This document shows positions 42,511-48,663 of a stretch of DNA of 52,407 nucleotides, piece after piece. Made by a program: the position numbers and the translations under genes. The DNA lies in the UHGV virus genome UHGV-0113213; one strand, written 5' to 3'. Under the pieces are notes generated by a model. The model was not told where the DNA came from. It did no database searches and saw only the letters and a program-made list of their open reading frames with translations. The stretch comes from a virus. The stretch's first letter is position 1. Every line of letters starts with the position of its first letter.

Positions 42511-43158
42511 TTATGGCAGGTTTACGATCTTCGCATCAACCACCACGCCTATAATTTTTGATTCTGGATTCATAGGGATTGGCGGATACAGCGGATTGAG
42601 CGAACGTAAAAGCCTTTGACCTCCATCAATAATCAACTGTTTAAACGTCGGTATCTGCCCTTCCTCAAGCTGGGCTATAACCAGTTTGCCGTCAATAGCT
42701 GGCGCGTGCGGGTCCACAAGTATCATCGTCCCCGCCGGGATGCTCAACCCCTGCGGCGCGTTCATTGATTCACCTTTGGCAACCAGCCAGTAACTGTCAT
42801 CTGAACAAATAACGCTAGTCGTAACGTGTCGTAATGCTGAACGCCTTGCGTCATCCATATTGTTTACTGTGTCCTTCCAGTCAATAACCGGGTAACTACC
42901 TAAATCACGCGGCGGCACGGCCTGAAGTGTATTAGAAACAGAATCATCAATGACCATGCCATCATGTGTAACAGTAAACTGCCGACGACCAAGCTCGCGC
43001 ATAATCCGCGCAATATCTTCAAGATTTGGCTCTCGGCGACCGTTCAGCCAGTGTGACAGGCCGCCTTTAGTTATCCCCATACGATCCGCGAGTGAATCCT
43101 GGCTCATGCCCTGCGCCCGCATGAGCTGCTTTGCTAAGTCATACCATTTTGTTTTCAT
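42511..43158 (-). CDS. cI: CI-like repressor (HTH_XRE + S24 LexA-like peptidase)
   Basis: N-terminal HTH (QDSLADRMGITKGGLSHWLNG); C-terminal SMN...G and K dyad consistent with the S24 family. Confidence 0.8.
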   Translation of the reverse strand: MKTKWYDLAKQLMRAQGMSQDSLADRMGITKGGLSHWLNGRREPNLEDIARIMRELGRRQFTVTHDGMVIDDSVSNTLQAVPPRDLGSYPVIDWKDTVNNMDDARRSALRHVTTSVICSDDSYWLVAKGESMNAPQGLSIPAGTMILVDPHAPAIDGKLVIAQLEEGQIPTFKQLIIDGGQRLLRSLNPLYPPIPMNPESKIIGVVVDAKIVNLP

Positions 43159-43463: not shown

Positions 43464-43730
43464 ATGAGTATAAACATGATTAGTAAAGCATGGAACGTAA
43501 AACTTAATAGCCCGATTCAAAAACTTGTCTTAATGGCTCTGGCTGAAAAGGCAGATAACAAAGGACGGGTACATGATGCATCACGCAAAGAAGTAGCCGC
43601 AATGTGTGAACTTCCTGTTCATACGGTACATGATGCCTTCGCCGCGTTAATGGATAAAGGATTTGTTTGTCGTCTTGATGCATTCAGTGATGTCTATGTA
43701 GTGATGTTGCCGGGGGGGGATGATCTATGA
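43464..43730 (+). CDS. winged-HTH protein resembling the N-terminal DNA-binding domain of replication protein O
   Basis: KLVLMALAEKADNKGRVHDASRKEVAAMCELPVHTVHDAF resembles lambda O residues ~50-100. RBS AGGAGAAAATGCG. Confidence 0.45.
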   Translation: MSINMISKAWNVKLNSPIQKLVLMALAEKADNKGRVHDASRKEVAAMCELPVHTVHDAFAALMDKGFVCRLDAFSDVYVVMLPGGDDL

Positions 43731-44773
43731 AGTGGTTTAAGCATGACAGCGATGCGAACCGCGATGAAAAACTTCAAAACGTTTTGTTAGATTATGGCCT
43801 GGAAGGGTACGGGCTTTATTGGTATTGCCTCGAACTAATAACTTATGACGTAGATCAGCACAATCTGAATTTTGACCTACGACATGACGCGAGAATCATT
43901 GCGCGAAACGTCGGATCGACTGAAAAACGTATAGAAGAAATGATGAAATACTTCATCGAAATTGGTTTGTTTGAATGTTCTCAAGGCCACATAACTTGTT
44001 TAAAGTTATTGAAAAGGCTTGATCAATCAATGACTTCTAAAAGCGCGTACAGGGCCGCCATAAACACAGCTAAGGAGCAATTAAAATTAGAAAAGTTAAT
44101 CAATCCAACACAAAAAGGTCATGATAGGGTCATGACCGGGTCAGGAAAGGGTCATGAATTAGAAGTAGAAGAAGAAAGAGAAAAAGATATATACACTTCG
44201 TGTATTGTCGAAAATGAACAAAAAATGTTCAATCGGGATGGCGTAAACGAAGCGGCATTGCGTTGTCTTTCCTTCTACAACGACAAGGCAGGATGCAAAT
44301 GTCGTGATGCGAAGCCATTCATAGAACTACTGACAGAAACAAAAACACGTAAAGCATATACTGAGGAAGAAATCACATTAGTAATCGAGTGGGCTTTAAC
44401 GCAATGGCGTAGCCGTGGTGGAACACCTAAGCCTATCAACATTTGCCGGGTAACTAAATTTGATGGGTATCTGGCTGATGCTGAACAATGGCGCAAACTG
44501 TCAGCCACTGCAAACGCTGCCGATGTGGTGGAAGCATTTAACAGCACGTTTGACGGTCTGTTACCACATGCCGAACTGGATCGGGATCTTGAACGTAAGA
44601 TCTATGCGTTCACTGACTACCTGAAAGACAAAAGCATCACTGGCTTTATTGCTTACTTTGAGGCGTTCAAAAACACGGCTTCAGATTTTTACTTCGGCAA
44701 TGGCTTTACTGCGACACTGGATTTTCTACTTAAACCAAAAACGCTACGTGATACACGATGTGGCGCTCTTTGA
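43727..44773 (+). CDS. replisome organiser / replication initiation protein (Phage_rep_org_N-like)
   Basis: MKWFKHDSDANRDEKL N-terminus; iterons embedded in the linker region. Confidence 0.55.
   Translation: MKWFKHDSDANRDEKLQNVLLDYGLEGYGLYWYCLELITYDVDQHNLNFDLRHDARIIARNVGSTEKRIEEMMKYFIEIGLFECSQGHITCLKLLKRLDQSMTSKSAYRAAINTAKEQLKLEKLINPTQKGHDRVMTGSGKGHELEVEEEREKDIYTSCIVENEQKMFNRDGVNEAALRCLSFYNDKAGCKCRDAKPFIELLTETKTRKAYTEEEITLVIEWALTQWRSRGGTPKPINICRVTKFDGYLADAEQWRKLSATANAADVVEAFNSTFDGLLPHAELDRDLERKIYAFTDYLKDKSITGFIAYFEAFKNTASDFYFGNGFTATLDFLLKPKTLRDTRCGAL
44117..44200. promoter_or_regulatory. candidate replication origin: four GGTCATGA iterons at 11-bp spacing, then an AT/purine-rich tract
   Basis: Iterons at 44117, 44128, 44139 (degenerate) and 44150; followed by agaagtagaagaagaaagagaaaaagatatata. 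Confidence 0.5.
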
Positions 44774-44905: not shown

Positions 44906-45007
44906 ATGGACGGTAAACACGTTTTCGCCCTGGCTTTTGCCATCGCTGCGGCAATCGCTGTTAACGTCGCCTTGTTCGGCGGATTGTATCTGCTAGTTAA
45001 TCCATAA
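44906..45007 (+). CDS. 33 aa hydrophobic peptide MDGKHVFALAFAIAAAIAVNVALFGGLYLLVNP
   Basis: RBS AGAGGA; fills an intergenic gap. Confidence 0.35.
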   Translation: MDGKHVFALAFAIAAAIAVNVALFGGLYLLVNP

Positions 45008-45147
45008 CTACCCTTCTACCTTAAAAATCGAAAATTAGCCACATGATTGCGCTTCTGGCGCAAAAAAGACACTGCAACCTTACAAGTGGGTTACGCGGTG
45101 GGTTTTTGCGTTGTAGCGCGTCTGAGGCGTTTTAAGGAGTTGGATCG

Positions 45148-46071
45148 ATGCGCAAGTTAACACATGATGAACAGGTTGCGGCTATCGCTAAGGTTAATCA
45201 TGATGTCGAAGTGCTTGGGGAAATTGTCAATAACAGGACAAAAGTATCCTGCCGCTGCAAGGTTTGCAGTCACGAATGGTCGGCTAGACCTTACAATCTT
45301 AAAAGCGGTTACGGCTGCCCGAAATGCGCCGGAAAGATGAAATTATCACACGAAGAACAGGTTGCCGCTATCGAGAAGGTTAATTCTGATGTCGAAGTGA
45401 TTGGCGAAATAATAAACGGCGATACAAAAGCATTATGCCGCTGCAAAGTTTGTAATCACGAATGGTCGGCTAAACCTAACAACCTAAAAAACGGGCGCGG
45501 CTGCCCGAAATGTAAAGGTTTAAAAATCGCACAAAGACGAACATTATCACACGAAGAACATTTATCCGCTATCACTAAGGTAAATCATGATATTGAAGTA
45601 TTGGGAGAAATAATAAACGATAGGACAAAAGTATTATGTCGATGCAAGGTTTGTGATCATAAGTGGTCGCCTAGACCTTATGCTATTAAAAGCGGGCAAG
45701 GCTGCCCGAAATGTGCGAAACACGGTTTTTTGTCACACAATTTCGGCAAACTTTACATCATGGTTGATGATCCTGAAGTGCCTACACAAATGAAAATCGG
45801 CGTAAGCGTTAATGAGAACAAGCGAAGAAATCGGGTATTAAAAAGCGCACATAAATCAGGCGTTAGAATCCCTGATTTATGTGTCGTGAAAACGTTAGAA
45901 GGTCCAACCGAAAATATCCATGAATTAGAAAGCACGATGCATAAATATTTCAGCAATTATAAAATTAACTTTCCTGTAAAATTTGATGGCAGTAATGAGT
46001 TTTTCTATTACAGGCCGGAAGTATTCGACATGGTAGAAGAAGCATATAAAGAGATTGTTTGCTGTCAATGA
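45148..46071 (+). CDS. protein with 3 tandem zinc-ribbon repeats plus C-terminal GIY-YIG/T5orf172-like domain
   Basis: Three copies of CRCKVCxHEWS..P...K.G.GCPKC; C-terminus GKLYIMVDD...MKIGVS. Confidence 0.5.
   Translation: MRKLTHDEQVAAIAKVNHDVEVLGEIVNNRTKVSCRCKVCSHEWSARPYNLKSGYGCPKCAGKMKLSHEEQVAAIEKVNSDVEVIGEIINGDTKALCRCKVCNHEWSAKPNNLKNGRGCPKCKGLKIAQRRTLSHEEHLSAITKVNHDIEVLGEIINDRTKVLCRCKVCDHKWSPRPYAIKSGQGCPKCAKHGFLSHNFGKLYIMVDDPEVPTQMKIGVSVNENKRRNRVLKSAHKSGVRIPDLCVVKTLEGPTENIHELESTMHKYFSNYKINFPVKFDGSNEFFYYRPEVFDMVEEAYKEIVCCQ
45157..45729. repeat. three ~190-200 bp tandem repeats (zinc-ribbon units)
   Basis: Protein-level triplication mirrored in the DNA. Confidence 0.6.
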
Positions 46072-46104
46072 ATATACAAAATGTAAACATGAGGAAATAA
46101 CAAC

Positions 46105-47223
46105 ATGTCACAAAGAAAGATAAGCGATGAGCAATTGATCGCTGAATATAACAACGGTTTAACGTACAAGCAGATCGCTGAAAAATATGGCATGTCAAAA
46201 CGCAACGTCGAGCGCCTGGGCGCAAAGCTGGCGAAACGCGGTTTAATATCCACGCGTCGCGCGCCGGGTTTTGGCGTCAATGGCGAGTCATTGCTAGTTG
46301 ATAAGGATGGCAATGTGATTATGCGCTGGATTAAAACAGCCCGTGATCGCGATGAAATGGAAAGGCTAATGCAAGCGGCTTGCGATGCTTTCACGGAAGA
46401 CATGCCACGCGCTGAGGCTGTGCCAGTGCCGGAAATTGATTTCCAAAAAAGCCTGGCTCTTTATCCGGTATTCGATCTGCATATCGGTGCGCTTGCGCAT
46501 AAAGCTGAATGCGGTGAGAGCTACGACACCGGGATCGCCGAACGTGTGTTAAATGACTTCTTCGACTACGCGGTGGGCGCTGCGCCAATGTCTGAAAAGG
46601 CTGTTTTGTTGTTAGGAGGTGATATTCTTCACACTGACGGCCTGTTACCAGTGACGCCATCAAGCAATCACGTCCTGGATTGCGATTCACGCTACGCAAA
46701 ACTGGTTTACGTGGCGATCCGGTCGGTCCGGCGTGCGGTCGGGAAGATGTTACTAAATCATAAGTATGTCGAGATCCAGACATTATCCGGTAATCACGAC
46801 CAATCAGGGATGATCTGGCTACGTGCGGCGCTGGCGGCTTTTTACGAAGATGAACCGCGCGTAACTGTTGATGTGTCCCCTGCTATCGTTCACCACACAC
46901 AGTACGGCAAAACATTCCTTGCTTACCACCACGGACACACCATCAAAAAACCAGAAAATTTGTTGTCTGCCTGCGTCTCTGACTGGCGGGAGGATTTCGG
47001 CAAGTCGTCGGCGGTTTACGCTCATTGCGGACACTGGCATCACCAACGGCTGATTGAATCATCGTTAGGCGTTGTTGAGTATCACGGCACGTTAGCTGGC
47101 AAAGACGCTTATTCAACAAATGGCGGCTGGCGGTCGCGTCGGCTGGCTGCGGTAATAATTTACAGTCCTGATCATGGGGAAATCGGGCGCTTTGTTTATT
47201 ACCCTGAATATTCCATTTTGTAA
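46105..47223 (+). CDS. HTH plus calcineurin-like metallophosphoesterase fusion protein
   Basis: N-terminal HTH (LTYKQIAEKYGMSKRNVERL). Phosphoesterase motifs DLHIG, GGDILH, GNHD, HHGH, GHWHH. Confidence 0.5.
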   Translation: MSQRKISDEQLIAEYNNGLTYKQIAEKYGMSKRNVERLGAKLAKRGLISTRRAPGFGVNGESLLVDKDGNVIMRWIKTARDRDEMERLMQAACDAFTEDMPRAEAVPVPEIDFQKSLALYPVFDLHIGALAHKAECGESYDTGIAERVLNDFFDYAVGAAPMSEKAVLLLGGDILHTDGLLPVTPSSNHVLDCDSRYAKLVYVAIRSVRRAVGKMLLNHKYVEIQTLSGNHDQSGMIWLRAALAAFYEDEPRVTVDVSPAIVHHTQYGKTFLAYHHGHTIKKPENLLSACVSDWREDFGKSSAVYAHCGHWHHQRLIESSLGVVEYHGTLAGKDAYSTNGGWRSRRLAAVIIYSPDHGEIGRFVYYPEYSIL

Positions 47224-47241
47224 ACCGGAGGCGATACCATA

Positions 47242-48663
47242 ATGATAACCGAACAAGTAAACTCATTGCGGCAAGAAAGAGAATCTGCGGTTATCGGTGG
47301 CCTGCTGTTAGGTGGGCTTACTCCTAACGCGCAAGACGTTCTCGCTACTCTAGATCCTGAAGTATTCACTATTCCGCTATATAAGCGGGCTTTTGAAATT
47401 ATCCGTGCGCAAGCCAGAAACAGAAATCTCATCGACGCGTTACTGGTTGGTGATGAGATTGGTAATGAAAACTTTGTGCCGCTAATGCAAACGGCGCGAT
47501 CGTGCCCTTCTGCTGCCAACCTGAAGGGGTACGCACAGTTACTACGTGAAGAGCACCAACGTCGGCAGATGTTGGAACTCATCGACGATATGCGCTACAA
47601 ACTGGAAACTGGGACACTTGAGGTCGTCAAAGAGACGATGAAAGATTTTGATTCCCGGTATTCAAAATTAAAGGTAACAAAAGATCAGATTATCCCGGTG
47701 CTGTTGCGAGATGCTGTCCAGGAATACACGGAAGTGCTAAGTAAACGCATGGAGTGTGGCGTGAACTCTGACAACATCAAAACAGGGATTGACCCACTCG
47801 ACGAAATGTTAGGCGGCATTAACGCTACTGATATGGTGCTTATCGCCGGACGCCCAGGGTCTGGTAAATCGGCGTTGGCGTTGGCAATTGCCCGCGCGGC
47901 GGCTGAACGCCAATACCCTGGCGGAGAAGGTCAGCGGGTAGGCGTTTTGCTGTTCACGCTTGAAATGTCGCTCGATCAGATGACTGAACGCGCTATCGCT
48001 GGCGCAGGGAACTTGTCAACGGATTGCCTACGTAATCCGGTAAAACTGGATGACGAAGGGTGGGCGCACGTTGCCCAGGGGATGAGCGCACTTGCCGATC
48101 TCGACGTGTGGATTGTTGACGCATCACAGTTAACGGTCGAGGAAATACGCGCCACCACGGAACGGATGAAACAGGACCATCCTAACCTGGGAATGGTAAT
48201 GATTGACTACATCGGGTTAATGAAGCTGGCTAAGGCCGAACGTCATGATCTCGCCGTAGGGCAATTGTCGTGGTCATTGAAAATGATGGCGAAAGAGTTG
48301 CGCGTGCCAGTGGCGGCGCTGGCGCAATTATCCCGCCGCGTTGAAGAACGACCGAACAAGCGCCCTAACAATTCTGATCTGCGTGATTCCGGCAATCTGG
48401 AACAAGACGCAGACAGGATCATCATGGTCTACCGCGACGGCTACTACAACGAACAATCAGTTGCACGCGAGTACATGGAGATCATCGTTTCAAAAAACCG
48501 TCACGGGAAAACGGGTACTGTTTACCAGCGGTTTGATGATAACGGCAACATTTTACCATGCGACCAGGCCCGCGCGGCGTCCGCGTGTATCCAGTCAATG
48601 CAACAACGTCAGGCGACAAGCCGATTCTCCCAGCGAAATAACCAGACAAACTCATCTTTTTAA
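47242..48663 (+). CDS. replicative DNA helicase (DnaB family)
   Basis: Walker A GRPGSGKSALAL, LFTLEMS, DLRDSG..EQDAD. Confidence 0.85.
   Translation: MITEQVNSLRQERESAVIGGLLLGGLTPNAQDVLATLDPEVFTIPLYKRAFEIIRAQARNRNLIDALLVGDEIGNENFVPLMQTARSCPSAANLKGYAQLLREEHQRRQMLELIDDMRYKLETGTLEVVKETMKDFDSRYSKLKVTKDQIIPVLLRDAVQEYTEVLSKRMECGVNSDNIKTGIDPLDEMLGGINATDMVLIAGRPGSGKSALALAIARAAAERQYPGGEGQRVGVLLFTLEMSLDQMTERAIAGAGNLSTDCLRNPVKLDDEGWAHVAQGMSALADLDVWIVDASQLTVEEIRATTERMKQDHPNLGMVMIDYIGLMKLAKAERHDLAVGQLSWSLKMMAKELRVPVAALAQLSRRVEERPNKRPNNSDLRDSGNLEQDADRIIMVYRDGYYNEQSVAREYMEIIVSKNRHGKTGTVYQRFDDNGNILPCDQARAASACIQSMQQRQATSRFSQRNNQTNSSF

Follow-up and report, generated by a model that had tools for sequence, protein, structure and literature searches.

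Gene organization and internal repeats

The stretch of DNA analysed here (the window; 52,407 nucleotides, virus genome UHGV-0113213) is a prophage of E. coli that carries an integrase and belongs to the mEpimmI group. A cI-like repressor gene (42511-43158) and a Lin1244-type replication-initiator gene (43727-44773) are followed by a very hydrophobic ORF of 33 aa (MDGKHVFALAFAIAAAIAVNVALFGGLYLLVNP; 44906-45007, + strand), the gene examined in this study (45148-46071, + strand), a 372-aa gene that is metallophosphoesterase-like according to RefSeq annotation (46105-47223, + strand) and a DnaB helicase gene (47242-48663). The gene thus lies in the replication region, as the first-pass annotation had proposed, and adjoins essential genes, with the initiator upstream and the metallophosphoesterase-like and DnaB genes (46105-48663) downstream. 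The 33-aa ORF, which is conserved and is carried as hypothetical in the annotation of mEp013, mEp515, mEp044 and MagusPhagus, probably encodes a small membrane peptide. Some records give the 372-aa protein the name 'metallophosphoesterase family protein' or 'DNA repair exonuclease'; against Pfam it gave no above-threshold match, with only weak N-terminal helix-turn-helix-like signals (Rrf2, 7e-4; sigma-70 region 4-like, 1.8e-3). A promoter and terminator scan found nothing above the shuffled expectation that bears on the gene.

The ORF runs from ATG to TGA exactly as first annotated (45148-46071, + strand) and encodes a complete protein of 307 aa, in which three zinc-finger modules precede a T5orf172 nuclease domain. 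Module 1 (aa 4-60; 45157-45327) was delimited by Pfam, unit alignment, unit conservation and AlphaFold, and modules 2 (aa 66-122; 45343-45513) and 3 (aa 133-189; 45544-45714) by Pfam, unit alignment and DNA repeats; the nuclease domain, of GIY-YIG fold, occupies aa 193-303 (45724-46056), all on the + strand. The periodicity that had been noticed in the DNA was recovered by Tandem Repeats Finder as a pair of overlapping arrays whose periods are 186 and 201 nt (matches 77-80%, scores 481 and 466), and a repeat search located three in-register copies of 173 nt (45154-45326, 45340-45512 and 45541-45713), the second and third being 80% and 76% identical to the first. This repeat signal is far above chance. 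At the protein level, the three tandem repeats of approximately 65 aa described previously correspond to start-to-start spacings of 62 and 67 aa, each unit consisting of a gap-free 57-aa core (L[TS]HxEQ...CRCKVCxH[EK]WS...GCPKC). The three cores are 67-74% identical to one another and are joined by linkers of 5-10 aa.

Type and diversity of the zinc-finger modules

Each of the three modules was matched in Pfam by DUF4379 (1.3e-19, 70.6 bits against a cutoff of 24.5) and by the CapR homology domain (PF21817; 1.5e-17, 64 bits against a cutoff of 24.2). The latter takes its name from CapR, the capsid-operon repressor of the Vibrio cholerae satellite PLE, a zinc-finger DNA-binding protein related to the N-terminal domains of putative T5orf172 homing endonucleases of phage ICP1; its DNA binding requires four cysteines, as Cys-to-Ser mutants no longer bind (PMC8096241). 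Across 402 distinct units, the cysteines at unit positions 34, 54 and 57 are invariant, that at position 37 is 94% conserved and an extra cysteine at position 32 is 93% conserved, and the likely zinc ligands in module 1 are C37, C40, C57 and C60. The Cys4 module noted at first is thus present, with one refinement of its type. In the AlphaFold model the unit comprises a helix, three short strands, a short helix and a further helix (58-63 in module 1) beginning inside the second CxxC (C57/C60), and because of this feature and of the Pfam description of DUF4379 as a 'probable treble clef zinc finger', 'treble-clef zinc finger' appears a better name for the module than 'classical zinc ribbon'.

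The variability of the modules is confined to a small part of their length. In the same 402 units, ten positions (26, 27, 38, 42-44, 46, 47, 50 and 52) are hypervariable, with entropies of 2.4-3.5 bits, and the scaffold outside them is nearly invariant. Among the best 120 homologues and the window's own protein (121 proteins), 415 units displayed 391 distinct ten-position signatures, and a signature recurred within the same protein in only one of the 121. Between three 3-unit orthologues, separated by dS values of 0.5-1.5, dN/dS was 0.10-0.14 in the finger scaffold and 0.08-0.17 in the nuclease domain, showing that purifying selection acts on both parts (dN/dS about 0.1), which indicates that the gene is maintained. 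Higher values at the hypervariable positions (0.4-1.1) were rejected as a sign of positive selection, since these positions had been picked for their variability and dS is near saturation.

The T5orf172 nuclease domain

The two GIY-YIG-like motifs reported downstream of the repeats are both present, GKLYIM at aa 200-205 and MKIGVS at aa 215-220. The domain was matched by T5orf172 (PF10544; aa 202-293, 5.4e-6, 27.3 bits against a curated cutoff of 20) and by MUG113 (26.0 against 22.3 bits). All four Pfam families (DUF4379, CapR, T5orf172 and MUG113) thus exceed their curated thresholds, and both domain guesses of the first-pass annotation, zinc module and T5orf172, held up in the HMMER comparison. 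The C-terminal domain has the fold of the GIY-YIG superfamily; the canonical GIY-YIG model PF01541 found no match at E <= 1 in the Pfam scan of the 307-aa protein. PHROGs assigned the protein to phrog_681, 'endonuclease' (2.7e-57), and also to phrog_559, and NCBIfam held no family for it.

An alignment of 148 non-redundant homologues revealed 14 residues that are 98-100% conserved (G200, Y203, D207, P212, K216, G218, R226, E261, H265, F279, G281, E284, F286 and Y288), with Y203, K216, G218, R226 and E284 at 99-100%. Y203 lies on the 'GIY' strand and K216-I-G218 on the 'YIG' strand, where Lys takes the place of the second Tyr; R226 is found ten residues past the K-I-G motif, where the first helix begins, and E284 within an FDGxxEFF segment. 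These residues constitute the T5orf172 version of the GIY-YIG centre, and motif order, spacing and secondary structure suggest that R226 and E284 correspond to the catalytic residues of I-TevI and Odn. The spacing of R226 equals that in I-TevI, where R27 follows Y17.

The AlphaFold model, for which 40 three-unit homologues served as input, reached a mean pLDDT of 85.9 and a pTM of 0.42, with confidence dropping at the linkers, and the protein accordingly looks, in the model, like well-folded beads on a flexible string. Profile searches of PDB sequences gave no usable match to the nuclease domain; the matches obtained were limited to DUF4379 proteins from assembly intermediates of the trypanosome mitoribosome (6yxx_E2, mt-SAF33) and chance CxxC matches to GspE/PilF, and were discarded. 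When the nuclease domain was compared with 1.84 billion representatives by single-sequence HMMER, only 26 clusters were recovered, marking the T5orf172 subfamily of the window as a narrow one by sequence, and among these clusters other finger types are fused to the same T5orf172 domain.

The first-pass annotation had ventured that the protein combines a DNA-binding module with a nuclease-like domain. This view is supported by published work on the two domain types, as the CapR finger binds DNA (PMC8096241) and Odn, a T5orf172 nuclease, cuts DNA in vitro, an activity abolished by the E180A substitution (PMC8263062).

A swappable slot between replication genes

Comparison with MagusPhagus, whose flanks are approximately 92% identical to those of the window and whose slot is empty, showed that the gene is an ORF-precise cassette in a swappable slot. 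Homology to the empty allele (...GCGTTGTAGCGCGT TTTACGGAAAATAAATATACATTCTGTAAACC...ATG) stops at 45121 (...GCGTTGTAGCGCGT) and resumes at the stop codon, so the breakpoints are exact, at 45121/45122 on the left and at about 46069 on the right. The MagusPhagus alignment and a junction comparison of 14 alleles place a cassette-specific leader with the ribosome-binding site AAGGAG (45134-45139) at 45122-45147 (+ strand). In the junction comparison, the right boundary falls at 46069-46104 (+ strand), where the TGA overlaps a conserved (T)AAATATACA..TGTAAAC..GAGGAA spacer before the downstream ATG (46105).

In a survey of 32 E. coli prophages with both flanks, the slot held a zinc-finger-T5orf172 gene in 12, a Bro-N or Rha plus KilAC gene in 11 and a DUF559-type gene of approximately 350 aa in two, and was empty in the remaining seven. 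One of the two DUF559-type proteins has a DUF559/Vsr-like match and the other has no Pfam match, the N-terminus being common to both. Cultured phages show the same range: the slot is empty in mEp010 and holds Bro-N-KilAC in mEp515 and mEp554 (from its translation, mEp515_13, of 247 aa, is a Bro-N-KilAC protein). In mEp044, inspection by eye and similarity to the M15 protein indicated Bro-N fused to a Vsr/DUF559-like domain (mEp044_12), together with a second gene whose product, also by eye, resembles the Rha-KilAC cargo. The zinc-finger-T5orf172 gene is thus variably present at one locus, and the slot exchanges non-nuclease genes as well.

The slot boundaries are identical for all cargos (loci L003 and L005-L016; window 45117-45147 and 46069-46104), and since the Bro-N/Rha-KilAC cargo shares them, presence and absence fit module exchange through flanking homology as well as they fit homing. 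At the left junction, an extra 8-9 nt (TCTGAGGCG / TCTGATGCG) are common to the zinc-finger-T5orf172 and the approximately 350-aa DUF559-type cargos. No junction polymorphism separates zinc-finger-nuclease from Ant-type alleles among the 14 compared; the single consistent difference, TATACAAAATG in contrast to TATACATTCTG in empty alleles, was considered as a target or immunity mark and set aside as uninformative, because Ant-type alleles have it too.

The next junction, before the helicase gene, is occupied in mEp021, mEp515 and mEp010 by an HNH-AP2 homing endonuclease gene (HNH_3 + AP2; L001 7044-7547, L004 3905-4459 and L016 2804-3394), a second presence/absence nuclease gene of the same replication module; the window has no gene at this position (47224-47241). 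The region is thus a hotspot for accessory genes of the 'DNA-binding module plus effector' type.

The cargo of the slot bears on the possibility that the product is a non-cleaving DNA-binding regulator, either a CapR-like repressor or an antirepressor-type accessory protein matching the Bro-N/Rha-KilAC proteins that otherwise occupy the slot. PLE CapR is indeed a pure DNA-binding repressor derived from such a zinc finger, and T5orf172 was historically grouped with the Bro/KilA DNA-binding modules (cited in PMC8096241). Nevertheless, we consider a regulator improbable, as the full GIY-YIG-type centre (Y203, R226, E261/H265 and E284) is invariant over the 148 homologues and under strong purifying selection, the domesticated CapR has lost the nuclease domain that the window protein keeps, and the joining of the same finger arrays to other nucleases (HNH, Vsr/RAP-like) in other phages argues for a role in nuclease targeting.

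Module number, spread and decay among relatives

Homologues of the protein are widespread. The protein database yielded 1916 at E <= 1e-5. E. coli is the source of most of the best 120, which bear the names 'zinc-ribbon domain-containing protein' or 'GIY-YIG nuclease family protein'. A tblastn search matched 761 of 50,697 phage records, with hosts including Vibrio, Escherichia, Staphylococcus, Salmonella, Klebsiella, Campylobacter and others, and 269 viral models in BFVD matched at E <= 1e-3. The best named structural match there is the 'T5 Orf172 DNA-binding domain-containing protein' of Escherichia phage navn (E 6e-26), and a link to the experimentally homing 'Hef' is given by the name of one BFVD match only. 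Full-length homologues also occur in two unrelated lytic phages, Campylobacter phage A147 (46% identity, covering 99% of the protein) and E. coli O157 typing phage 14 (41% identity); such high identity suggests that the whole gene has spread horizontally across distant phage groups.

Module number was counted with an HMM of the unit in the best 120 of the 1916 homologues and the window's own protein. Three units (55 proteins) and four units (38) predominate, followed by two (15), five (7) and six (6), and the C-terminal tail is constant at approximately 118 aa in every counted protein; one-unit homologues of approximately 178 aa are also known. Orthologues at the same locus have one unit in mEp013, three in the window and six in mEp021. 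In mEp021, a recent duplication is indicated by the 94% DNA identity between units 5 and 6, and certain arrays recur inside longer ones: units 1-3 of a 3-unit protein, for example, equal units 3-5 of a 5-unit protein. The first-pass annotation had asked whether the repeat number is conserved or selected among relatives: it is not conserved (1-6), and the repeats themselves are under purifying selection. This variation does not refute the proposed function, because variable repeats are a described property of the family (PMC10448857) and the repeats are selected.

Several relatives are in decay (P0122, P0130, P0139, P0141 and P0134). Some are ORFs of 93-103 aa that begin inside the nuclease domain; P0141 has an in-frame deletion that joins unit 2 to the nuclease domain with loss of the GKLYIM strand, and the C-termini of P0134 and P0141 are frameshifted. 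These forms fit the decay phase of the homing-endonuclease life cycle. Other close relatives of the modules have a C-terminus that is not T5orf172, with a weak RAP/Vsr-like match in P0107.

Since homing-endonuclease genes pass through invasion, decay and loss, and P0122, P0130 and P0141 are shortened or internally deleted, the window gene might itself be a defunct remnant drifting to loss and without current function. This is highly improbable, because the window copy is not shortened and retains every motif residue, comparison with orthologues at dS 0.5-1.5 gives a dN/dS of about 0.1 once the hypervariable positions are set aside, and a cluster of 99%-identical proteins (P0004, 23 member sequences) has been seen independently.

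A probable homing-type nuclease

The most probable explanation, to which we assign a probability of roughly 0.6, is that the gene is a selfish, free-standing gene for a site-specific nuclease of the homing type, belonging to T5orf172 within the GIY-YIG superfamily. This interpretation follows from the three DUF4379/CapR and T5orf172 matches above thresholds, the catalytic-type residues invariant in 148 homologues, the dN/dS of approximately 0.1, the exact presence or absence of the gene, its adjacency to essential replication genes, the neighbouring HNH-AP2 homing endonuclease gene, the 1/3/6 unit series, the 391 signatures among 415 units and the decayed derivatives, and it is reinforced by the literature on the CapR finger, Odn and repeat-finger homing endonucleases (PMC8096241, PMC8263062, PMC10448857). 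Against it stand the non-nuclease cargo in the slot, the failure of any junction polymorphism to set zinc-finger-nuclease alleles apart from Ant-type ones, the Lys in place of the second Tyr and the unmatched PF01541. Domain composition, fold, residue conservation, purifying selection, exact-site presence or absence and module-number variation are direct observations, from which we infer that the window protein would bind zinc and DNA, cleave at a target and home.

Under the homing reading, the three treble-clef modules, independently folded as beads on a string, would jointly recognise an extended DNA site, with approximately ten hypervariable surface positions per module setting the specificity, and the C-terminal GIY-YIG-fold domain would cut nearby DNA through its Tyr203 / Lys216-Ile-Gly / Arg226 / Glu284 centre. 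The expected target is the gene-less allele of related mEpimmI-type phages, and recombinational repair from a gene-carrying genome would insert a copy of the cassette, along with flanking markers, in the slot. Unequal recombination between DNA repeats of 76-94% identity may add or remove whole modules (1-6 units) and thereby retarget the enzyme.

Alternatively, the gene may have been domesticated, like Odn of ICP1, into a targeting nuclease that is aimed at a competitor phage, satellite or plasmid and benefits the prophage. Odn and the Odn-like genes of coliphages show that T5orf172 has been recruited repeatedly in mobile-element conflict (PMC8263062; PMC10448857), and extremely diversified fingers (391 of 415) beside a conserved nuclease have the look of an arms race; the position in the early/replication operon predicts expression on induction or infection, and PADLOC returned a candidate match (PDC-S57, 1e-4), the only one, which is weak and for that reason was rejected as a defence-gene assignment. 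Such a role is unlikely: there is no candidate target, the fingers form a generic homing-endonuclease array rather than a domain copied from the replication initiator of a competitor as in Odn, and the patchy distribution of the gene, together with its empty sites and decayed copies, is typical of a selfish element.

Comparison with known systems

The architecture has already been published and is common, and the gene is an ordinary member of a described family. Of 229 T5orf172 homing endonuclease genes, 200 carry CapR, DUF723 or DUF4379 zinc fingers (Barth, Dunham & Seed 2023, PMC10448857, where DUF4397 appears in print as well), often several per protein as 'beads on a string'; their DNA-level repeats recombine, adding or deleting domains, and the genes adjoin essential genes and are variably present (PMC10448857). 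Homing by the ICP1 members is described there as lacking experimental verification. Compared with this set (gp174, gp165, gp121, gp130 and gp53 of ICP1, Vibrio phage Helene and T5-like coliphages), the window gene has an identical architecture (treble-clef zinc fingers arrayed at the N-terminus, T5orf172 at the C-terminus), similar DNA-level repeats with recombination altering unit number, and the same patchy occurrence among close relatives beside essential (replication) genes. It differs in that its host is an E. coli prophage of the mEpimmI type, temperate and equipped with an integrase, as opposed to the lytic ICP1 and T5-like phages from which the family is named, in the unusual regularity of its modules (a gap-free 57-aa core, 65-89% identical within a protein), in its clean allelic series of 1, 3 and 6 units at one orthologous slot and in the alternative occupation of that slot by Bro-N/Rha-KilAC or Vsr-type genes.

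Odn (ICP1 Gp88, origin-directed) likewise has a T5orf172 domain that keeps the catalytic Arg and Glu, and it provides the only biochemical proof we found that this domain type cuts DNA (PMC8263062). However, its DNA-binding part is a RepA_N domain copied from the satellite target, and it is domesticated for anti-satellite defence. The zinc-finger module of PLE CapR (PF21817) is homologous to those present in three copies in the window protein, but CapR is single and stand-alone, without the nuclease domain that remains intact here, and its cysteine motif is CxxC...CxC as opposed to CxCxxC...CxxC. In phage introns, tandem targeting arrays of approximately 60-aa CapR/DUF4379/DUF723-like modules (CapR-like x3-5) are fused to EDxHD/Vsr-type homing nucleases (PMC12350094); those enzymes are Vsr-like and borne in group I and II introns, whereas the window gene is GIY-YIG-like and free-standing. 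The I-TevI and T4 Seg enzymes differ more, with an N-terminal nuclease (the reverse order), two Tyr in the GIY...YIG motif, the second of which is Lys216 in the window protein, where PF01541 is not matched, and DNA binding through NUMOD/helix-turn-helix elements instead of a treble-clef finger array.

The locus is not a new kind of system, but it is a good experimental handle. What is locally noteworthy is the series of 0, 1, 3 and 6 units at an ORF-precise slot, combined with the extreme diversification of ten positions. In mEpimmI-type E. coli prophages, genes now annotated as 'hypothetical' or 'zinc-ribbon domain-containing protein' could be re-annotated as T5orf172-type homing-endonuclease genes, and cultured, closely related temperate coliphages with no unit (mEp010, MagusPhagus), one unit (mEp013) or six units (mEp021) at the identical slot form a natural test system, which would allow simple crosses for T5orf172 homing and footprinting for target recognition by each module. 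We also consider, as a rather doubtful extension, that the 57-aa modules might form a programmable, additive DNA-recognition array comparable to TALE repeats or C2H2 finger arrays, in which each module would read a few base pairs through approximately ten hypervariable positions on an invariant scaffold and target length would scale with module number (1-6). If true, the allelic series at one phage locus and the 391 signatures in 415 units could let a recognition code be read, and this code would offer a compact targeting scaffold of a new kind, to which a monomeric GIY-YIG-type nuclease is already attached.

Solved structures containing a DUF4379 module are confined to trypanosome mitoribosome assembly factors (PDB 6yxx_E2; 6sga/7pua chain Fd), in which the module sits in an RNA-protein complex, suggesting that nucleic-acid binding by this fold extends beyond DNA.
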